Assembly (NCBI GenBank): GCA_028281345.1
Contig: JANQKB010000051.1
Coordinates: 7,276 to 71,275, forward strand
Source: Chlorobium sp.
Lineage (GTDB): Bacteria > Bacteroidota > Chlorobiia > Chlorobiales > Chlorobiaceae
DNA: 64,000 nucleotides
Direction of reading: 5' to 3'
Shown: positions 3,392-20,913 of the stretch, piece by piece
Position numbering within the stretch: position 1 is the first letter of the stretch
Layout of the letters: every line of letters starts with the position of its first letter
Notes under the pieces: generated by a model
Seen by the model: only the letters and a program-made list of their open reading frames with translations
Told to the model about the DNA's origin: nothing
Databases searched by the model: none
Made by a program: the position numbers and the translations under genes

Positions 3392-3653
3392 ATTTCGATA
3401 ATAAAGGATCAAACACCGTGCCAAACATCATAAAACAACGGTAAAAAGCCTTAAGCATCATAAAACAAAAGGGTTGAAAGGTTTTTCTCATGAAACAGTA
3501 TCTGCGTTCTCTGCCTAACAATCCATCTCATATTGATATTTCTTCTCATTTTGAAACCACATATGAAACAATAATCCCTCATTACGTCGCTGAACGTACC
3601 GAATTAAAAACCCTATATTCTCAGAAAACCACTTACAACAATCCCGACACACA

Positions 3654-4325
3654 ATGCGCATTCACGATCTCGATCCTGAAGAAAGACCGCGAGAACGTTT
3701 CCTTCGCTCAGGCGCATCAGCTCTGAGTTCGGCTGAACTGATAGCACTGATCTTAAAAACAGGAACCAAAGGAAAAAACATCCTGGAAGCATGTAACGAG
3801 TTGATGGGCCGTTACGGCCTTGAAAAGCTGGCCGATCTTTCGATGGGAGAGTTGCAGGAAAACGATGGGATAGGACCGGCAAAAGCAATGCAGATACAGG
3901 CTGTTTTTGAATTGCATAAACGTCTGCACTTCAGGCGCAATACCGGAAAAAAGATATCCTCAGCCAGGGGAGTCTTTGAGTATATGAGCGGGAGAATTCC
4001 TGACGAAACAAAAGAGCATCTGTTTTTGCTTCACCTGAATACAAAAAACCAGATCATACGCCACGACATTGTTTCGGTCGGAACGCTGAACGCCTCGCTG
4101 ATTCACCCGAGAGAAATCTTCAAACCGGCCATACGGGAAAGTGCCCATGCCGTTATCCTGGTACACAATCATCCGTCAGGAGATGTTGAACCGAGCAACG
4201 CAGACAAAAAGGTGACAAAACTACTCAAACAGGCTGGTTCAATACTCCAGATCGATCTCCTCGACCACGTGATAGTCGGAAGGGATAACTGGTTCAGCTT
4301 CAGGGAGCAATCATTGCTCGGATAG
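3654..4325 (+). CDS. radC: RadC family JAB-domain protein
   Basis: [39 protein letters not shown]...[12 protein letters not shown]. Confidence 0.95.
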
Positions 4326-4867
4326 CAGGAACAACATTTTTCCTACCTTCATATCCTGTGTTTTTCGAGAATTTACTTGATAATCTCACCATGTTTGGCG
4401 AAATTACGAAGTAAGCGACTTGTTTCAACCTGTTGTAAAAGACACGATACTCTGATCCGGTATTGTGCAGTATATCGTTTACCGTACATTCAGTATCTCC
4501 TTTGCGGCATGTTCTCGTTCCGAAGCCCAATAAACCGGTTGCAAGAGAATATGTTTTTAATGACCCGCAAAATGCTGGAATAAAAAGTCACAAACACCCC
4601 GACCCCCTTAAATCAGATAGATTAACGATTTTTTTTTCACTGTTTCTGATTGAGCCCTCATATGGGTTGAAAATCAAAAACCCGCAGCTTAGGCGGGGCG
4701 ATCCGATTAATCTTAGCCTTTATAAAAAGGAGGTGATAAAAGAGGTTCTACCACTGCAGAGAAGGCAAGCAGTAATGGCAGGCGATAAGAGGAGTACGAG
4801 CATGCTGAAGTTATTTACGTTGTGTTTCCAAGCTTAAATACTAAATGTGAACATTCAGGAGGAAAAC

Positions 4868-5845
4868 ATGAGCAACACCAAGAAGATGCAACAATTTCAG
4901 TACGACCCTAAGTATATAGTAAATTCAGCAGTTGGCAGTGAAAAAGATTTTTGCATGGGGTACCTTAACCCCAGCCCTTCAGGTAATGGTTATATTACCA
5001 CGATCAAGCTCTCCGTCGGATTAGTCAATATTCCACAGTCAGCAATAGGTGGCGTACCGTTTGACAAAGGTACGGCAGGAATCGTTTCCTATGACCGTTG
5101 CGAATGTAATGACGCCTATATCGGCGCAATCAATATGGTGACCGCATCATCCTTCAGCGGTCTGAATGGAGTAATATGGGGCTATGATCTGGCTCGTGCC
5201 GAGAACCTCCGGGATGTCCTTTTATACAAGCAGCCATGGCCTGATGGCTCGAAAACCCCTGTATACAGCATTCACCCTTTGCTTGATACAACCCAGAGAC
5301 TTTTCGGAATAGATTCCCAAAGGCGTTTTAACCCTTTACCGGGTTCCATGGTGGTTTGTGCAAATAAAAACGCCACCAACGACCCCAGTACCCAACCTTG
5401 CGGATGGGCCTGGTCTTTCATCGCCTTATCTATCCTGGAAGATCGCAACAGCGGCTCCAATCTTTTTATCGAAGACTGCGGTTTTATCGAGGGCAATCCC
5501 CCGTATAGCGAGGTAAAAAAAACCATGGATGAAACCCTGCACAAGGTCACTGAATGCGCAGTGCTCTGTGGAGTCGATCAGGACATAAAATACAAAGAAA
5601 CGTTTATCGGTTATAAGCTGGTAAAATTTGGCGATAACCAGGTAGGCTGTGCCCTTGCCTGCGCCCCTTACGTGACCCTGGCAAGGAATGCCATCACCGC
5701 CGGTAAAAACCCTTCGGACCTGACAGACATGACAATCAGCGAATGGGAACAATCGTTGGGTCTGGAACCCCTTCCTCAAATCTCCAAACTGGAGCAGGGC
5801 TTTCTCGGATCGGAAGGCTTTAACGAGCAATACGGGGTTTTGTAA
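4868..5845 (+). CDS. hdcA: Pyruvoyl-dependent histidine decarboxylase proenzyme
   Basis: SYDRCE, autocleavage site NMVTAS/SFSG, VCANK and LFIEDCG correspond to Lactobacillus HdcA Tyr62/Asp63, Ser81-Ser82, Lys155 and Glu197. AGGAGG RBS precedes the ATG at 4868. Confidence 0.85.
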   Translation: MSNTKKMQQFQYDPKYIVNSAVGSEKDFCMGYLNPSPSGNGYITTIKLSVGLVNIPQSAIGGVPFDKGTAGIVSYDRCECNDAYIGAINMVTASSFSGLNGVIWGYDLARAENLRDVLLYKQPWPDGSKTPVYSIHPLLDTTQRLFGIDSQRRFNPLPGSMVVCANKNATNDPSTQPCGWAWSFIALSILEDRNSGSNLFIEDCGFIEGNPPYSEVKKTMDETLHKVTECAVLCGVDQDIKYKETFIGYKLVKFGDNQVGCALACAPYVTLARNAITAGKNPSDLTDMTISEWEQSLGLEPLPQISKLEQGFLGSEGFNEQYGVL

Positions 5846-5877
5846 AGATCCCTTGAACAGTAAAGATACCCCCCCGC

Positions 5878-5917
5878 TTCCCGTACCGGTTCGGCGTTTG
5901 CCGAACCGGTACGGGAA
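5878..5917. other. Perfect 18-bp inverted repeat (hairpin) between hdcA and the peptidase gene
   Basis: ttcccgtaccggttcggc-gttt-gccgaaccggtacgggaa; no U tract on either side. Confidence 0.9.
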
Positions 5918-5948
5918 CTAACGTTAATATCGTGAAAAGGAGGAGACG

Positions 5949-7640
5949 ATGTCCCGGATTATAACAGAAATAATTAACCTTTGGTCGGATCTCAATCCTG
6001 TCGCCGGCTATACCAGCGGTCATCTAAAGGAGTTAAAAACTTTATTTATCCAAACCCCAGGCAATGCCGAAAACATGCGGGCACGCATTGACAACCTGCA
6101 AAAAAGAATTGACGAAATAAAAGACAATATGTTAAAAGCTACGGCCGATGCCGTGTTGGTAGCTCTCAAGACACAGCTGGATATGGCTCGTCCCAGTGGA
6201 GCAGGTCCCTCTGGAACAGGTATGGGAGGCGTTTATGCAGCCGCAGACGGTATTTTTTATATCGTTCTCAAGCAAAACTATCAAGCTGATTTTGTTCCCC
6301 AATATCTGGAAGCTGTAGAAGAAATGGTGCAGTTTGAAACACAAAAATGGCAGTACCAGGAATTTTCCATATTGGTACGTAAAGAGTGTCTGAACACTGT
6401 CAATTATATGAACGGAACGCTGGAGTCACTGTTAAAAGTACGATCCGACCAAAGCACTAAAAAACAAGTGAAAGAAATCCGGCAATCACTTGAAGAGTAT
6501 AAAAACCTTTTTTACATCAAAGGCCTTGACTCTGACCAATTTAAAACCTATTGGCCGATATTCCGGAAATGGGATGAGATAACCGGCCCCCAGGTTACTC
6601 CCGGTTACCCGGCAAGCTTACAAAATTACTATTGTCTGACACAGAGCGCTGACGAGATCAAGACCATGGCACACAGCTGGCTGCAGCAGGACTTACCGGT
6701 AACGATCCACATCGCCGAGAGAATCACGGCCCTGCCTTTTGTGAAATGCGAAGGCAACCTTCAGGAAATCTGGGACAAAGTAAGCAACCATTACAAAGTG
6801 GATTTCGATCAAAAATTGATAGAAGAAGTCAAGAACAGATGTGTTGCATTCGGAGCCCAGTATATCATTAAACCTCCTCCCGGAGACAAGGTAAAATTCG
6901 ATCCTACTCCGGGTTACCTGGTCAACCTCGTGACAGGAGGAGAAGATTTCGCCGTTAATTACCTGGAAGGCAAGAATGCCTACTCCCAACTTTATTTAAC
7001 TGCGTCCAAAAATACGTCATTATTGACCATGATCAATATTTTGGTGCATGAGGCATCCCACGGATATAACTTCGTATTATCGGCAGAACATGCCCAAAAA
7101 TTGCTCAATCTCAACACTTCCCTGGAAGTACCTATGACCGAAGGCATGGCCTTTTATCGGGAATATCAATATTGGGCCGCTGCCCAGGATTTATTGGGAC
7201 AAGACAACTTGACCGACGTTCAAAAAGAGTACCTGGAACTCTATGGCAATAACCCCGAAGAGCAGGAACAAGGCGTGCTTTGTGCACAGCTGGAAACGTA
7301 CATCTGGCGCATCATTCGCTACATAAGAGCCCTTTGCGACGTCAATGTAAACGGAGGCAAAATGACATATACCGATTTCATTGCCTGGGCTGCTTCTGCA
7401 ACCGGATTATCCGAAGAAACCCTGCATGGTGAATGTTTTACCCTGCTTGCATCACCCGGTTATGCCCCCTGTTACGCAGTAGGTGGAGCGACCTATGCCA
7501 TGATGCAGAAAAAAGGGATTAACAAAACGAGCGATAGAGTATCGGAAATAGACTTCAACACCTTTGCTTCGGAGCAGGGTTTTTATGCCTGGCCGATCGC
7601 CGTTGAATTAATGAACGGCTATGTGTCCACAAAACAATGA
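5949..7640 (+). CDS. DUF885-like HExxH metallopeptidase
   Basis: HEASH, downstream TEGMAFYRE (cf. EGWALYAE) and PGYAPCYAVG (cf. PGQA..Y..G); AGGAGG RBS. Confidence 0.7.
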   Translation: MSRIITEIINLWSDLNPVAGYTSGHLKELKTLFIQTPGNAENMRARIDNLQKRIDEIKDNMLKATADAVLVALKTQLDMARPSGAGPSGTGMGGVYAAADGIFYIVLKQNYQADFVPQYLEAVEEMVQFETQKWQYQEFSILVRKECLNTVNYMNGTLESLLKVRSDQSTKKQVKEIRQSLEEYKNLFYIKGLDSDQFKTYWPIFRKWDEITGPQVTPGYPASLQNYYCLTQSADEIKTMAHSWLQQDLPVTIHIAERITALPFVKCEGNLQEIWDKVSNHYKVDFDQKLIEEVKNRCVAFGAQYIIKPPPGDKVKFDPTPGYLVNLVTGGEDFAVNYLEGKNAYSQLYLTASKNTSLLTMINILVHEASHGYNFVLSAEHAQKLLNLNTSLEVPMTEGMAFYREYQYWAAAQDLLGQDNLTDVQKEYLELYGNNPEEQEQGVLCAQLETYIWRIIRYIRALCDVNVNGGKMTYTDFIAWAASATGLSEETLHGECFTLLASPGYAPCYAVGGATYAMMQKKGINKTSDRVSEIDFNTFASEQGFYAWPIAVELMNGYVSTKQ

Positions 7641-8947
7641 GAGGAAAAATCATGAAGGCACAAAAAGACGATGCCCGTCTACCTGAATGTGAAACCGGTG
7701 AAGTAACGAAACTTCCTGGCTATGGCACAGTAAAGGAAAAACAACTGTCGGGGTACCTGCCAGTTACGGACAAAAATGATGCGTTTATCTATTTCTGGTT
7801 TTTCGAATCCCAGGGGAACCCCGATAAAGACCCTATTGTCCTCTGGCTCAACGGCGGACCCGGCTCCTCCAGTTTCATCGGATTATTCGCAGAAAACGGT
7901 CCTTACAAAATCCAAAGAGACAGGCTTTATGTGGATAACTATTATCTCGTGGACAATCCATACAGTTGGAACAAGAATGCCAGCTACTTAATGATCGATC
8001 AGCCTGCCGGGGCCGGCCTGTCCTATGTAACGGACCCGAAAGAATCGGCCAGAACCGAGCAAGAAGCTACCGACCAACTTTACAGGGGCTTACAGTGTTT
8101 TTTCGATCGCTGGCCGGCATACAGGAAACTGGACTTTTATATATTCGGTGAATCCTTTGCCAGGGTGTACATCCCGATGCTGGCAACCGCCATATTGGAC
8201 GAGAACCTGAAAGATCAACCCTACATCAACCTCACAGGAATCGGTGTCGGCGACGGCTTTGTCCATCCCTATATCCAGGAATCGACATACGGGGATTATG
8301 CCTATGCCCACGGTCTTATAGGGTTGAACGAAAAAAAGGAAGCCGATAAACTGTACAGGAAATGTGCTCGGGCCATCAAGCGGTCACAGCCCGTTACCTC
8401 GCGAAGGGCCGACAAAATATGCAACAAAATCGAAGAGTACATTTCAAAGGTAAGCGGTGGTGCAAACGTATATGATGTGCGCCTCATCGGCGATTACAAT
8501 TTCGACATTATCGGCGGGTACCTGGATCAACCTGCGGTTCGCAAAGCCCTGCATGTTTCACCTCACGCCAAGGCCTGGAAAGATACATCCAAACGAATTG
8601 CTTATTTGCTGGAACGTGGGGAACAAAATTCCTATGCCGATTTATATCCGCGGCTGTTTGAATCGTTACCGGTACTTATTTATAACGGTATATATGATAT
8701 GGACTGTAATTTCATGGGAACCGATGCCTGGATAAAAGCACTGGACTGGTCCTACAAAAAACAGTTTTTAGAGCAAGAACGTCTACCATGGTTCAACGAA
8801 GGACAATTGGCAGGCCATATCCGCTCCTACAACAACCTGACACAGGTGTTGGTAGCCGGCGCCGGGCACTTGGTTCCGCTGGATCAACCGAAACATGCCT
8901 TGGCGTTATTGAATAACTTTACACAAAAAAAGCCACCCACCCTGTGA
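7637..8947 (+). CDS. Serine carboxypeptidase, family S10
   Basis: SGYL, YFWFFES, PIVLWLNGGPGSSS, NASYLMIDQPAGAGLSY, GESFA (Ser), YDMDC (Asp), AGHLVP (His). ATGA overlap with the upstream gene; no signal peptide. Confidence 0.9.
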   Translation: MRGKIMKAQKDDARLPECETGEVTKLPGYGTVKEKQLSGYLPVTDKNDAFIYFWFFESQGNPDKDPIVLWLNGGPGSSSFIGLFAENGPYKIQRDRLYVDNYYLVDNPYSWNKNASYLMIDQPAGAGLSYVTDPKESARTEQEATDQLYRGLQCFFDRWPAYRKLDFYIFGESFARVYIPMLATAILDENLKDQPYINLTGIGVGDGFVHPYIQESTYGDYAYAHGLIGLNEKKEADKLYRKCARAIKRSQPVTSRRADKICNKIEEYISKVSGGANVYDVRLIGDYNFDIIGGYLDQPAVRKALHVSPHAKAWKDTSKRIAYLLERGEQNSYADLYPRLFESLPVLIYNGIYDMDCNFMGTDAWIKALDWSYKKQFLEQERLPWFNEGQLAGHIRSYNNLTQVLVAGAGHLVPLDQPKHALALLNNFTQKKPPTL

Positions 8948-9091
8948 CGTTGAGCCAAGCAACGCGGACAAGCAGATAACATCCATCCTAAACAGACCGG
9001 TTCAATCATCCAGATCGATCTCCTCGACCACGTGATAGCCGGAAGGGATAACTGGTTCAGCTTCAGGGGACATTCAATGCCGGGCTCATAG
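8946..9091 (+). pseudogene. Duplicated, diverged radC 3' end (~48 codons, one frameshift)
   Basis: Translates as [15 protein letters not shown](k)[32 protein letters not shown], versus intact Rad[48 protein letters not shown]. Confidence 0.9.
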
Positions 9092-9108
9092 CAGCGAGAA
9101 AAATCGCA

Positions 9109-9396
9109 TCATTGACCTGTGACGCTCTCACCTTGCTGAACAAAAGCCTGAGGGTGAACGGAAGGCTGAACAGGTGTTTCGCTCTGGCAAATTTCACAGA
9201 CATTTTTCGCCTGCAGGCCTTTTTGAGTCTGGTCAATTTCAAACTCTACCTCAGCATCCTGGTTCAAAACCTTGAAGCTCTGGTCGGAAATGATGGCTGA
9301 AAAATGGACAAAAATATCTTCGCCTCCATCCGGGTTGACAATAAAGCCATAACCCTTCTTGCCATCAAACCACTTGACTTTACTTTTCCTTTGCAT
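9109..9396 (-). CDS. Cold-shock domain protein with C-terminal extension
   Basis: [29 protein letters not shown]...KGLQAKNV. The ATG at 9396 is preferred. Confidence 0.93.
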
Positions 9397-9580
9397 GATC
9401 AAAACTGGGGGTTTATCCTTAAAGGTAGATGCAGTTGTATAACTGCATCGCGGGAGTGCTATACAGAAGAAATATAGGTTAATTATCAAGACGCAACAAC
9501 ATTTTGAGCATTTTTTTCGAAGTTAATACAGCGATTTCTTGACACAGGACGGCTATCACAACCATTTTAAGTCCCTTTTT

Positions 9581-10312
9581 ATGCAGAATATCATCTTACT
9601 TACCGGTGCCGGCAAAGGTATCGGAAAAGCGATCGCCCTTGAATTTGCAGCAAGAGCCCGGAGCAATCCGTCCTTTAATCCGGTACTGGTGCTTTGTTCC
9701 CGCACCATTACCGACATTGAAAACATTGCGAATGAATGCGAAGCGCTGGGCACGAAAGCAGTTGCAATAGAAGCCGATATAGCAAATCTTGACGATATCG
9801 ACCGGCTTGTAACCAGTACCCTTGAGAAGTTCGGCACCGTAGACTGTCTGATCAACAACGCAGGTGTTGGACGGTTCAAAAGCTTCACTGAACTTAATGA
9901 AGAAGATTTCGACTATACCATGTCAGTAAACATGAAAGGAACTTTTTTTCTGACCCAGAAAGTGTTCCCTGTCATGGAAAGCAGACGTTCAGGCCATATT
10001 TTTTTCATCACTTCCATTGCGGCCGAAACTGCTTTCAAAAGCTCCTCGATCTACTCCATGTCAAAATTCGGACAGAAAGGACTTGTTGAAGCCCTTCGGC
10101 TCTACGGCAGGGAATGCAATGTTAAAATCACCAATGTCATGCCGGGAGCGGTTTATACCCCAATGTGGGGTAATGCCGGAGAAGAGTTCAGGAACGTGAT
10201 GATGATGCCAGAGGATATCGCCGGGCCGGTTGTCAATGCATACCTTCAGCCGCACAGAACATCCGTGGAAGAAATTGTTATGAGACCTGTCGGAGGAGAT
10301 ATCAATAGTTAA
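9581..10312 (+). CDS. Short-chain dehydrogenase, Chlorobium-type sepiapterin reductase
   Basis: TGAGKGIG, NNAGVG and YSMSK motifs. The sequence closely follows the C. tepidum sepiapterin reductase as recalled (FNPVLVLCSR, MMMPEDIA.PVV.AYLQP). Confidence 0.85.
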   Translation: MQNIILLTGAGKGIGKAIALEFAARARSNPSFNPVLVLCSRTITDIENIANECEALGTKAVAIEADIANLDDIDRLVTSTLEKFGTVDCLINNAGVGRFKSFTELNEEDFDYTMSVNMKGTFFLTQKVFPVMESRRSGHIFFITSIAAETAFKSSSIYSMSKFGQKGLVEALRLYGRECNVKITNVMPGAVYTPMWGNAGEEFRNVMMMPEDIAGPVVNAYLQPHRTSVEEIVMRPVGGDINS

Positions 10313-12215: not shown

Positions 12216-12429
12216 AGTTGTTTTTCTCACGAACCGGCATGTAAAATATCATCGTGCCACCGATGACTTTTACACGTTTCTACCGGAAGCACGGGACTTG
12301 GCCCAGCCTGGAAGTACCCATCAGGCATGTACGATGGTTCAAGAAGTGCTGCAAACCTTTCGCCGCCGCCTTTACACATTCCCCCCTCTTCGAAACCCGC
12401 CATGTTTTTTTTTATGTAAAACGATCTAA

Positions 12430-12573
12430 AGGGCACCGCTATAAATTGTCGCGAGCGCCTTGAGCACGAGGCGAACGGAGCGCAGAAACCGGAGTGTGCA
12501 CGTAGTACATGAGGATTTCGAGCACCGATCAACGAAGTAATCATGGTGCGCAGCAAATTAATAGAGGCGCCCT
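12430..12573 (+). repeat. ~144-bp MITE-like repeat, copy 2
   Basis: Ends agggcaccgctataaatt / aattaatagaggcgccct form inverted repeats; same core as copy 1. Confidence 0.92.
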
Positions 12574-12658
12574 AAAGTGAAACCTTTTTACGTCCCTCCG
12601 CATAGCAATAATTAAACGATGCTTTATTCAACGACAAAACTATGAGCAGGAAGAGGAC

Positions 12659-13144
12659 ATGAGCGTAAAAATGAAATCTTGGGCAACGCCACTGGCCGCC
12701 GGAACCTTCGTCATTCTTGCCGTAACCGGCATTCTGATGTTCTTTAAAATCAACATAGGGTATATCAAGCCCGTCCATGAATGGCTGAGCTGGGCAATGG
12801 TGATCGGGGTGGTTTTTCATACCATAGCCAACTGGAAACCCTTCACCTCATACTTTTCGAAAAAGCCATCCCTTTCCATTATCGGAGCAGGTTTGATTAT
12901 CACCATGCTTTCTGTTTTTATGCCGTCCGCCAACGATGGCAATCCAGGGATGAAAATGATCAAAGCACTCGGAACGGTAAAAATCGAAACCATTGCCGAC
13001 ATAGCAGGGCAAAACAGCGACGCTATCGTCACAAAGCTCGAACAAAAAGGTATTTCCGAAGCCGGGACATCCATGACCATCCGGGAGATTGCTACAATGA
13101 ACGGAAAAAAAGAGAAAGATATTCTATGGGTCATTTTCCAATAA
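12659..13144 (+). CDS. DUF4405-like membrane protein
   Basis: WATPL..GTFVILAVTGILMFF, VHEWLSW...FHTIANWKPF..YF. Confidence 0.7.
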   Translation: MSVKMKSWATPLAAGTFVILAVTGILMFFKINIGYIKPVHEWLSWAMVIGVVFHTIANWKPFTSYFSKKPSLSIIGAGLIITMLSVFMPSANDGNPGMKMIKALGTVKIETIADIAGQNSDAIVTKLEQKGISEAGTSMTIREIATMNGKKEKDILWVIFQ

Positions 13145-13171
13145 CCTCGTCTTCGGGCAAGAAAGAGACAA

Positions 13172-13201
13172 TAAAAAACGCACCTGCTATGATGCGGGTG
13201 C
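13172..13201 (-). terminator. Terminator for metX at a convergent gene junction
   Basis: gcacctgc/gcgggtgc stem with an adjacent A run (U tract on the minus strand). Confidence 0.6.
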
Positions 13202-13211
13202 TGAGGCACCT

Positions 13212-14285
13212 TTAAGCGGCTGAACTATCCTTGGCGGTTACCTCATCCCTGAACGCTTTCACCAGCCGGCTGACCTTGTCAACCTCGATCAGAAACGCGT
13301 CGTGGCCGTATGATTCGTGGAGGTACTCGATACGGCTGTCGGGAATATGCCGCACAAGCTCCTCCTGTTCCTCTTTGGGGTAGAGAATATCGGATGTGAT
13401 GGAAAGCACTTTGACCGGCATGGCAAAAGATTCAAGCACCCGGTTGTACTCCCCTCTTCCGCGCGAAAGGTCGTGGGAATCCATGGCCTTCGTAAGGGTG
13501 ATGTAGGTATTGGCGTCAAAGCGGTTGACGAGTTTCTCCCCCTGATAGCGAAGATAGCTTTCCGCCTGGAAGGTTTTTTCGTCTCTCTTGTCGCGCCCGA
13601 AACGGCCTTGAAAGTTGTCGAAACTCCGGTATGAGCACATCGCCATCATGCGGGCTGCCGCCAGACCCCTTGCCGGTTGCGCCTGAGGATCATACCATCC
13701 TTCCTTCCAGTCACGGTCAGCGATAATTGCCTGACGCTGTGCCTCGCTCTGTGCTATACACCATGCCGAATGTCTCCCGGATATGCCCATCGGCATGAGC
13801 GCGCACACCTTGTCGGGGAACATGCAGCCCCACTCCAGCACCTGCATTCCGCCAAGCGAAGCACCGACAGCCAGCTTCACCTGTTCGATACCGAGTTCAT
13901 CGAGCAACAGCCGCTGCAGCCTGACCATGTCACGTATGGTAATAGCGGGAAAGTCGGGGCCGTAACGCTTGCCTGTCAAGGGGTTTCGAGACAGAGGACC
14001 GGTCGTACCGTAACAGCTTCCCAGCACATTGCTGCAGATAATAAAATCCTTTGTATCGTCAAACCCTTTTCCTTCTCCGAACATTCCATCCCACCAGATA
14101 TCGGCATCTGCCGAGCCGGTCAGGGCGTGACAGATGAGCACAACATTGTTTCGCTCCCGGTTCAAAGACCCCCAGGTACGATACGCAATGATTGTTTCAG
14201 GCAGTTCACCTCCAAGCTCAAGGCTGAAAGGTTTACGGCTGACAAAAAATCCTGTTTTTTCTGATATGCTATCGATATACTCCAT
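13212..14285 (-). CDS. metX: Homoserine O-acyltransferase (MetX family)
   Basis: CHALTG, CSNVLGSCYGTTGP, GASLGGMQ, RFDANTY, DILYP, HESYGHDAFL. Confidence 0.95.
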   Translation of the reverse strand: MEYIDSISEKTGFFVSRKPFSLELGGELPETIIAYRTWGSLNRERNNVVLICHALTGSADADIWWDGMFGEGKGFDDTKDFIICSNVLGSCYGTTGPLSRNPLTGKRYGPDFPAITIRDMVRLQRLLLDELGIEQVKLAVGASLGGMQVLEWGCMFPDKVCALMPMGISGRHSAWCIAQSEAQRQAIIADRDWKEGWYDPQAQPARGLAAARMMAMCSYRSFDNFQGRFGRDKRDEKTFQAESYLRYQGEKLVNRFDANTYITLTKAMDSHDLSRGRGEYNRVLESFAMPVKVLSITSDILYPKEEQEELVRHIPDSRIEYLHESYGHDAFLIEVDKVSRLVKAFRDEVTAKDSSAA

Positions 14286-14325
14286 TCCCTGTTGATCGTT
14301 TTCAAAGTTTATGTTTCATTGTTCT

Positions 14326-14465
14326 TGGCACCACTATTAATTGTCGTGAGCGCCTTGAGTACAAGGCGGACGGAGCACAGAAACCGGAGTGTACACGCGG
14401 GGACATGAGGATTTCGAGCACCGGCCAACGAAGTGATCATGGCGCGCAACAAATTAATAGCGGTG

Positions 14466-14468
<3 letters not shown>
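14326..14468 (+). repeat. ~143-bp MITE-like repeat, copy 3 (between metY and metX)
   Basis: tggcaccactattaatt / aattaatagcggtgtca inverted ends. The right end includes the metY stop codon (tca at 14466-14468). Confidence 0.92.
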
Positions 14469-15809
<1,341 letters not shown>

Positions 15810-20771: not shown

Positions 20772-20913
20772 GTGCACCTCTATAAATTTGCTGCGCCCCA
20801 TGATTACTTCGTTGAGCGGTACTCGAAATCCTCATGTACCTTATGTACACTCCGGTTTCTGCGTTCCGCTCGCCTCGTACTCATGTCGCTCGCGACAATT
20901 TATAGAAGCACCC
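20770..20913 (-). repeat. ~144-bp MITE-like repeat, copy 4 (inverted)
   Basis: Reverse complement of the same core; one end overlaps the xerD TAG. Confidence 0.92.

Follow-up and report, generated by a model that had tools for sequence, protein, structure and literature searches.

In this work we looked at a small group of genes in a 64,000-nucleotide stretch of DNA from Chlorobium sp. (GenBank assembly GCA_028281345.1, contig JANQKB010000051.1, positions 7,276 to 71,275 of the forward strand; hereafter the window). Between radC and a minus-strand cold-shock protein gene (csp) it carries three intact, co-oriented open reading frames (ORFs; 4868-8947), which form an islet encoding a pyruvoyl-dependent histidine decarboxylase (HDC), a DUF885-like putative zinc peptidase and an S10 serine carboxypeptidase (Table 1). 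We analyzed the segment between radC and csp, and the Pfam and Rfam scans covered positions 3400-9700. A previous reading of this DNA, made without database searches (the sequence-only reading), had assigned the three co-oriented genes to the HdcA, DUF885-like HExxH and S10 families, an assignment that was confirmed by Pfam, and had suggested that they form a peptide-to-histamine module inserted at radC.

Table 1. Features of the radC islet, its flanks and a dispersed repeat, in window positions.
Feature	Position	Strand	Basis or remark
radC (UPF0758 N-terminal domain + RadC JAB domain)	3654..4325	+	Pfam RadC, E 7e-44
radC 3' end, proximal duplicate, now completes radC	4181..4325	+	Repeat comparison
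Left spacer of islet, 542 nt, no convincing gene	4326..4867	not assigned	
hdcA-like pyruvoyl-dependent histidine decarboxylase proenzyme, 325 amino acids (aa)	4868..5845	+	Pfam HDC PF02329
Intercistronic hairpin	5878..5917	+	18-bp perfect stem, 4-nt loop, no U-tract
DUF885-fold putative gluzincin, HExxH, 563 aa, predicted cytoplasmic	5949..7640	+	DUF885 PF05960
S10 serine carboxypeptidase, 431 aa (436 aa from ATG 7637)	7652..8947	+	Peptidase_S10
radC 3' end, distal non-coding remnant, right islet border	8946..9090	+	Repeat comparison
Cold-shock protein gene (csp), native flank outside islet	9109..9396	-	Pfam CSD
Dispersed repeat copies	2128-2275, 12429-12576, 14325-14470	+	
Dispersed repeat copy	20774-20906	inverted	

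Two start codons are available to the hdc gene, GTG 4847 and ATG 4868. The latter is preceded by an AGGAGGA Shine-Dalgarno sequence and gives a protein of the same length as the closest HDC homologue (325 aa), and it is likely to be the start that is used. For the S10 gene, ATG 7652 has a GAGGA 7 nt upstream and matches the start called in the records of relatives. The ATGA overlap of the two peptidase genes (7637-7640) that was described in the sequence-only reading does exist, yet the 4-nt overlap applies only to the start at 7637 and the alternative start at ATG 7652 would give an 11-nt gap; whichever start is used, the two genes are tightly coupled. From their sequences, none of the three N-termini (HDC, DUF885-like, S10; 0 of 3) has a hydrophobic signal-like segment, in line with the claim that signal peptides are missing. 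The claim that the antiporter and hdcB/hisS are missing from the locus also holds, as no amino-acid permease or antiporter, hdcB or hisS was found within 3400-9700 and the radC repeats enclose no genes other than the three.

The first protein matches the HDC family over profile positions 10-294 of 294 (PF02329, E 2.8e-67). Both the alpha and beta chains of the solved enzyme (PDB 1HQ6/1PYA) are matched, the alpha chain with E 3.7e-28, and the identity to the Lactobacillus enzyme is ~35-40%. The self-cleavage Ser-Ser is found in 'VTASSFSG', where 'TASSF' aligns with 'TTASSF' of Lactobacillus 30a, which is cut between Ser81 and Ser82; this column is invariant in 34 homologues and in all HDCs linked to the gene cassette described below. 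The residues I59, Y62, D63, E66, S81, S82, F195 and E197 of Lactobacillus 30a are identical in the window HDC, and Ile59, Tyr62, Asp63, Glu66, Phe195 and Glu197, which we take to be the substrate-pocket and catalytic residues of the Lactobacillus 30a enzyme, are identical in every cassette-linked HDC. Glu197 and Glu66 are named in the title of a 1989 paper by McElroy and Robertus. The dN/dS ratio is 0.06-0.09 for all three islet genes, indicating strong purifying selection. The HDC family comprises 444 clusters, including Methanosarcina, Nitrospirota, Acidobacteriota, cyanobacteria and Bacteroides, and judged by these clusters it is spread much wider than the Gram-positive fermenters where it is known. 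One HDC homologue, P0075 (439 aa), is a fusion with a jacalin-like lectin domain (PF01419).

The second protein contains a HEASH motif and scores 38.6 bits against the DUF885 profile (PF05960; cutoff 32.4), over residues 221-540 only; its membership is marginal. H367-E368-x-x-H371 together with E398 is invariant in 31 homologues and is a candidate gluzincin zinc site. While a sequence search of the PDB with this protein gave nothing at E <= 1, a fold search with its AlphaFold2 (AF2) model (pLDDT 92.8) did produce matches. The best PDB matches in Foldseek were 3O0Y, 3IUK and 3U24 (TM-score 0.58-0.68, E 7e-11 to 4e-8), and the weaker ones were angiotensin-converting enzyme (ACE), neurolysin, PepF and Dcp. 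These four enzymes are restricted to oligopeptide substrates. The model appears to share with the solved DUF885 proteins and with the ACE/M3/PepF fold a two-lobed helical architecture and the HExxH...E arrangement. The sequence identity between the solved DUF885 proteins and the window protein is, however, only 10-15%, and two of the three are annotated as putative lipoproteins, whereas the window protein is predicted to be cytoplasmic. Its close homologues (n = 126) are all ~560 aa long and at least 42% identical, many of them without a precomputed Pfam match. Across phyla, the mean column identity of the DUF885-like protein is 64%. An HMMER profile scan of 1.84 billion representatives returned 157 clusters at E <= 1e-3. 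The DUF885-like proteins probably form a small lineage apart from mainstream DUF885.

The third protein covers profile positions 5-419 of 420 of the S10 family (PF00450, E 1.6e-104) and matches carboxypeptidase Y (CPY; E 2.8e-59) and cathepsin A (E 2.5e-60). Its catalytic triad is kept: the Ser of GES, the Asp in 'YDMDC' and the His in 'AGHLVP' are equivalent to CPY Ser146, Asp338 and His397. When aligned to 1WPX it also keeps the WLNGGPG, ENGP and GES motifs, in which CPY Asn51, Gly52, Glu65 and Glu145 presumably bind the C-terminal carboxylate of the substrate. CPY Cys56 is replaced by Ser (GPGSSS vs GPGCSS), and the S1' equivalents of CPY T60, F64, E65 and M398 are I, A, E and L, which is uninformative on specificity. 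The secretory/vacuolar signature of the characterized eukaryotic S10 members, typically a signal peptide and disulfides, is missing, as there is no hydrophobic N-terminus, and the window protein appears to belong to a cytoplasmic prokaryotic lineage.

The linkage of these genes was tallied in 33 non-redundant loci with a DUF885-like gene, taken from close homologues and metagenome loci. An HDC gene adjoins the DUF885-like gene in 14 of the 33 and a PsiD-like pyruvoyl decarboxylase gene does so in 11; a 12th PsiD-linked locus (L075) has the PsiD-like gene ~5 kb away on the opposite strand. Among the remaining loci, L091 alone has full flanks, and the others are truncated on one or both sides. 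The sequence-only reading would have been refuted had the trio never co-occurred elsewhere; this is clearly not the case, as in the neighborhood comparison the trio or close variants of it were found at at least 26 independent loci in many phyla of both bacteria and archaea. The cassette hosts are Chlorobiota, Desulfobacterota, Actinomycetota, Nitrospirota, Bacteroidota, Pseudomonadota, Thermoplasmatota and Methanosarcina. The trio of HDC, DUF885-like and S10 is seen in a Desulfobacteraceae metagenome-assembled genome (MAG), a Thermoplasmatota archaeon, an Actinomycetota MAG, an Egibacteraceae MAG, Nocardioides vastitatis and an unassigned contig (L003), where an ISL3 transposase lies alongside. 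The S10 gene comes after the DUF885-like gene almost everywhere. In its place we find a C69 dipeptidase in two loci (L004 and L079) and a phospholipase-B-like N-terminal nucleophile (Ntn) hydrolase in three (L011, L074 and L086); Methanosarcina barkeri combines HDC with the C69 dipeptidase and the DUF885-like protein, and one Nitrospirota MAG and two metagenome contigs combine HDC and the DUF885-like protein with the phospholipase-B-like hydrolase. In one protein of 979 aa (P0191) the DUF885-like and S10 parts are fused. The trio has the appearance of a single functional unit, as had been suggested, and the DUF885-like gene is the invariant core of the cassette.

The decarboxylase is the exchangeable part. 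In about half of the cassette loci HDC is replaced by the PsiD-like protein, a member of the phosphatidylserine-decarboxylase family with the domains PSDC and PS_Dcarbxylase and GGSS as its self-cleavage motif. Its best solved relatives are the PsiD-type L-tryptophan decarboxylases (E 3e-26). In Pedobacter nototheniae and a Bacteroidota MAG, for example, the DUF885-like, S10 and PsiD-like genes overlap or adjoin each other. With HDC replaced this often, the cassette is not defined by histamine as its product; of the proposed peptide-to-histamine module, the combination of a pyruvoyl decarboxylase with peptidases recurs, and the emphasis on histamine is too narrow. In neighbor-joining (NJ) trees, built for the DUF885-like protein and for S10, one of the PsiD-linked clades falls inside the HDC-linked group, meaning that the decarboxylase was exchanged at least twice, and in the same trees the third partner was exchanged several times. 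The columns that switch in both PsiD-linked clades are S10 139 (R to K) and 284 (I/F to T), and only 425 (Q to E) in the DUF885-like protein. A His-specific peptidase pocket was sought from such specificity-determining positions, and three switching columns are too few to support one. The histidine preference that had been proposed for the peptidases is therefore unsupported, as their sequences hardly track the decarboxylase type.

Several cassette loci have features of their own. The PsiD-like genes that lie upstream of the DUF885-like gene (L076-L083, ~590 aa) share a conserved C-terminal extension of ~150 aa, which in L078, the one scanned, has no Pfam match. The unassigned contig with the ISL3 transposase encodes, in addition to the HDC upstream, a divergent 505-aa protein of the PS_Dcarbxylase family downstream of S10 (12388-13905) and may be an intermediate in decarboxylase replacement. 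In Roseibium sp. AS2 (L091, 5020-8943) a GNAT acetyltransferase gene is followed by the DUF885-like gene and S10 fragments of 73 and 300 aa; the flanks are full, no decarboxylase gene is nearby, and the locus may represent a cassette in decay. In L069 (4527-8436) the genes that come right after the cassette are one for a KAP-family P-loop NTPase, an unknown one and one with a QueC-like match that is weak and below cutoff. These putatively resemble a Qat-type defense system, and they more likely mark a variable, mobile region around the cassette than a defense role. An anti-phage role of the three islet proteins was rejected, as no PADLOC model matches any of them.

The HDC gene also occurs in other settings. 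We compared HDC neighborhoods in 61 reference-genome loci, and an amino-acid permease (AA_permease_2) stands beside HDC in 17 of them, all without a DUF885-like gene, as is typical of classical hdc loci; in the cassette loci of this set, which have a DUF885-like gene, a permease next to the decarboxylase was found in none. In gut Bacteroides (L023-L029 and L055; B. oleiciplenus, B. stercorirosoris, B. salyersiae and others) HDC is part of a conserved block with an M23 peptidase, a C69 dipeptidase, a ~580-aa protein that is putatively phosphoglucomutase-like by sequence, a PvlArgDC-like protein (PF01862) and a permease, so that a dipeptidase and an antiporter-type permease are found together with HDC. 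In Rhodobacteraceae (L037 and L042-L045; Palleronia, Roseibium and others) HDC is directly behind a TGL-family protein-glutamine gamma-glutamyltransferase gene (PF20085, E 1e-10), which lies ~1.5 kb upstream, and a divergent ~1270-aa regulator-like protein is also encoded next to HDC. This is a third, likewise undescribed, setting of HDC, and it hints at amine conjugation.

In comparison to the classical hdcP-hdcA-hdcB-hisS clusters, the islet has the same decarboxylase family, Ser-Ser site and substrate and catalytic residues, and the classical clusters likewise reside on horizontally gained mobile islands (PMC5313534). They differ in that the antiporter, hdcB and hisS belong to the classical clusters while the islet has two cytoplasmic peptidases instead, and in that the classical hosts are fermenters whereas the cassette hosts are environmental Gram-negatives, actinobacteria and archaea. 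The closest precedents for the involvement of peptides come from lactic acid bacteria. Peptides are described as intracellular precursors of biogenic amines in PMC3492074, where a route of peptide uptake, hydrolysis and decarboxylation, similar to the one we propose below, is given for tyrosine peptides and tyramine in Lactobacillus plantarum. There, general peptidases encoded elsewhere and export by an antiporter are involved, whereas the cassette has linked peptidases and no transporter. The HDC island of L. parabuchneri encodes a peptide-binding protein and a peptidase of the M20 family near hdcP-hdcA-hdcB-hisS (PMC5313534). Neither case has dedicated, co-inherited peptidases. The fungal L-tryptophan decarboxylase PsiD (9JER, 8ZIA, 8X4Q; PMC11929908) resembles the decarboxylases that replace HDC in the cassette, but the PsiD-like proteins are linked to peptidases and not to a psilocybin-type pathway, and none is encoded in the window. 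In the literature searched, no paper connects histidine decarboxylase with DUF885, with S10 or with Prosthecochloris. The sequence-only reading had not recognized the trio as a described system, and our search likewise gave nothing on it. The parts belong to known families and the combination is a variant of biogenic-amine modules; as far as we checked, a mobile, modular, transporter-less decarboxylase–peptidase cassette across both prokaryotic domains is undescribed.

One of the questions raised by the gene layout regards the 103-nt spacer between hdc and the peptidase genes (5846-5948), which contains the hairpin and folds at -42.8 kcal/mol (z = -5.1). At this site L069 and L003 retain a stem whose two sides both carry changes, and L092 has an unrelated stem there. 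The hairpin lacks a U-tract and was not scored as an intrinsic terminator. It is probably an mRNA stabilizer, a processing site or a partial stop, and it may set the ratio of hdc to peptidase expression. A promoter consensus scan found fewer promoter-like sites than in shuffled sequences, and no plus-strand terminator was found between the genes; these scans were uninformative.

The borders of the islet can be read from radC, a core gene across Chlorobiaceae that keeps its position in relatives and is the insertion target. Positions 4227-4317 and 8990-9080 are 90% identical over 91 nt and are the core of a duplicated radC 3' end, with a homology that spans ~4181-4325 and ~8946-9090 (~145 nt) and starts at the S10 stop codon. 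The duplication had already been noticed in the sequence-only reading; it is real and longer than was given there. Because its last ~145 nt are duplicated, radC is intact. The distal remnant has a 1-nt deletion relative to radC, and its 3' part runs into the sequence trailing radC at the empty site of L094. Directly after the proximal copy there is a sequence, caggaacaacattt, that is common to the islet-bearing L095 and absent at the empty sites. Such empty sites, in which csp directly adjoins radC and there is no insert, were found in L094, a TARA metagenome scaffold with a RadC that is 94% identical, and in L096, the complete genome of Prosthecochloris sp. SCSIO W1101. These sites in relatives indicate that the islet is an insertion and not a chance arrangement, which bears out the claim of an insertion at radC.

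The window comes from a lineage of Prosthecochloris that is associated with corals. Its best reference-genome match is the Prosthecochloris sp. A305 MAG, and near-identical contigs are metagenome records; the DNA runs that hold the sequence are coral, reef and marine metagenomes. The insert is found at the same radC site in Prosthecochloris sp. A305 and in a sister contig. Compared with A305, the three islet genes (hdc, DUF885-like and S10) are 93.1, 95.9 and 96.5% identical in DNA and have a synonymous divergence of 0.12-0.30, whereas the flanking genes (rplU, mdh, radC, csp, SDR, yqeY and serS) are 80-85% identical and have a synonymous divergence of 0.94-1.12. A305 is more distant from the window than L094, yet it carries the insert. 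As the islet is far more alike than its flanks, it has recently been exchanged. The left spacer (4326-4867) is only 75.5% identical to A305, compared with 93-96% for the islet genes, and the synonymous divergence from A305 (L006) falls along the islet, from 0.30 in hdc through 0.16 in the DUF885-like gene to 0.12 in the S10 gene. The gradient and the divergent spacer suggest a recombination breakpoint within hdc or immediately to its left.

No integrase was found in the islet; the left spacer has two short ORFs (68 and 124 aa) that were not Pfam-scanned. A relic of an insertion sequence or integrase in this spacer was considered and rejected, as 4326-4867 has no similarity to the matching regions of L003 and L069. 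Rfam gave no match in 3400-9700 at E <= 1, whether riboswitch or known RNA in the spacers, and the GC content does not mark out the islet segment. A terminator-like GC hairpin with a T-run that points leftward on the minus strand (4681-4697) lies within the left spacer. It may be left over from a minus-strand gene that was lost, or may stop antisense transcription. By the repeats and the empty sites, the segment ~4326-9090 is read as a horizontally acquired islet inserted, with no integrase, at the radC 3' end. It resembles the islands at the 3' end of conserved genes in its border direct repeats, intact target and empty sites, but differs from them in that it has no integrase, no transposase and no tRNA target and is only 4.8 kb long, and its spread between Prosthecochloris lineages fits homologous recombination via the flanks better. 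Our reading is that one original, target-duplicating insertion would have been followed by spread among Prosthecochloris lineages by flank-mediated recombination.

The window also holds a dispersed intergenic repeat of ~135-150 nt in four copies that are 84-89% alike (Table 1). It is found at matching places in related Prosthecochloris contigs, and against Rfam it gave only a sub-threshold match (sX9, 27.8 bits vs a cutoff of 44).

What could such a cassette do in the cell? The explanation that we favor, and to which we give about an even chance, is an intracellular route in which peptides are broken down to free amino acids and these are turned into an amine, which in this islet would be histamine. 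Short peptides would be taken up or made in the cytoplasm, and the DUF885-like zinc enzyme would cut oligopeptides. The S10 enzyme, or C69 elsewhere, would then free C-terminal amino acids or split dipeptides. HDC, once it has cut itself at Ser-Ser and so gained its pyruvoyl group, would turn the freed histidine into histamine and CO2, consuming one cytoplasmic proton. We infer that the peptidases supply the substrate of the decarboxylase; the product would be histamine, and the pay-off may lie in pH homeostasis, energy or amine production. The interpretation given in the sequence-only reading is borne out in part; with the PsiD-like loci taken into account, it should be broadened to peptide hydrolases that are coupled to an exchangeable pyruvoyl decarboxylase.

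Several points weigh against this route. Neither an amine exporter nor a peptide transporter is linked to the cassette. General peptidases are already present in cells, which leaves a dedicated and very conserved pair unexplained. The peptidases barely co-vary with the decarboxylase type (two S10 columns and one DUF885-like column), unlike what is expected if they were tuned to His as opposed to another residue. The window HDC scores below the NCBIfam equivalog cutoff (TIGR00541, 219.6 vs 346.65 bits), which would place it in a divergent subfamily to which the function is assigned by inference. No activity has been demonstrated for any DUF885 member in the literature searched, and the sequencing runs that hold the islet are all DNA metagenomes, with no RNA runs among them. 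The three alternative third partners all form acyl-enzyme intermediates, which would fit a transferase role as well.

This last point leaves room for amine transfer instead of substrate supply, meaning that the acyl-enzyme hydrolase swaps the C-terminal residue of a peptide, trimmed by the zinc enzyme, for the primary amine that the decarboxylase makes, be it histamine or another one with the PsiD-like protein, to give a peptidyl-amine. The S10 Ser and the N-terminal nucleophiles of the C69 and phospholipase-B-like proteins all act covalently, and no metallo-dipeptidase was seen at the third-partner position in the cassette loci compared, although only three partner types were sampled and the pattern may be chance. 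S10 enzymes are known for aminolysis and acyl transfer: CPY can use amine nucleophiles in transpeptidation, and the S10 homologues of plants act as acyltransferases. This adds to the case for transfer, as does the TGL-type transglutaminase directly in front of HDC in Rhodobacteraceae, since this class couples amines to glutamine side chains. The conservation of the DUF885-like protein (64% mean column identity) also suits a specific substrate over bulk turnover. Yet the S10 protein keeps the full carboxylate-binding set of true carboxypeptidases, and no precursor peptide, exporter or tailoring gene is conserved beside the cassette in the neighborhoods compared. We consider amine transfer quite unlikely, and a shade more doubtful still is its fuller form, in which the cassette would be a machine that puts amines onto peptides and gives C-terminally histamine-capped peptides as signals, metallophores or antimicrobials. 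If true, amine-capping would be a new, ribosome-independent tailoring chemistry that is horizontally spread across bacteria and archaea. Another hypothesis, which we regard as unlikely, is that the substrates are conjugates: N-acyl-histidine, gamma-glutamyl or beta-alanyl dipeptides or pseudopeptides would be deconjugated and the amino acid then decarboxylated, as a catabolic, detoxification or salvage route. Ntn hydrolases such as the phospholipase-B-like and C69 proteins often cleave non-peptide amides and S10 enzymes readily cleave N-blocked dipeptides, both of which would fit such a route; the narrow and highly conserved DUF885-like family suggests one defined substrate, and in Roseibium the GNAT acetyltransferase gene precedes the DUF885-like gene. 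On the other hand, no linked transporter or regulator points to a compound, the zinc enzyme is related by fold to oligopeptidases, and the exchange of HDC for PsiD-like proteins speaks against a single conjugate unless both use the same amino acid.

Two further options fit the linkage data less well. The peptidases might mature, trim or turn over the pyruvoyl proenzyme as an analogue of HdcB, which assists maturation in lactic acid bacteria (Trip et al., 2011, as cited in PMC5313534). The absence of hdcB from the islet would suit this role, and HDC and the PsiD-like proteins share only the pyruvoyl chemistry with a two-chain, self-cleaving proenzyme. HDC-type and PSD-type proenzymes, though, self-process by different built-in mechanisms, which tells against a common helper, and two large peptidases, one of them a carboxypeptidase, would be an implausible apparatus. 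Moreover, trimming the C-terminus of the beta-chain would remove Ser81, which we take, from the Lactobacillus 30a structure, to line the HDC active site. A maturation role is thus very unlikely. That the three genes are chance neighbors on transferred DNA with no functional tie is most improbable of all: the strong hairpin that separates hdc from the peptidase genes could be read in this way, but the linkage recurs in at least 26 independent loci, in unrelated contexts and in both domains, and the gene fusion and the modular replacement keep the functional classes.

If the peptide-to-amine route is true, the cassette would be a second way, independent of transporters, for prokaryotes to link the breakdown of peptides with the formation of biogenic amines, and it would occur in coral-skeleton green sulfur bacteria, soil actinobacteria, Bacteroidota, methanogens and other archaea. 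It would also give the first functional context for a conserved branch of DUF885, for the rare cytoplasmic prokaryotic S10 proteins and for the bacterial PsiD-like decarboxylases. Nocardioides vastitatis, Pedobacter nototheniae and Methanosarcina barkeri are cultured carriers, and M. barkeri is genetically tractable. Likely histamine producers would extend well beyond fermenters and enterics, which is relevant to coral holobionts and to guts.

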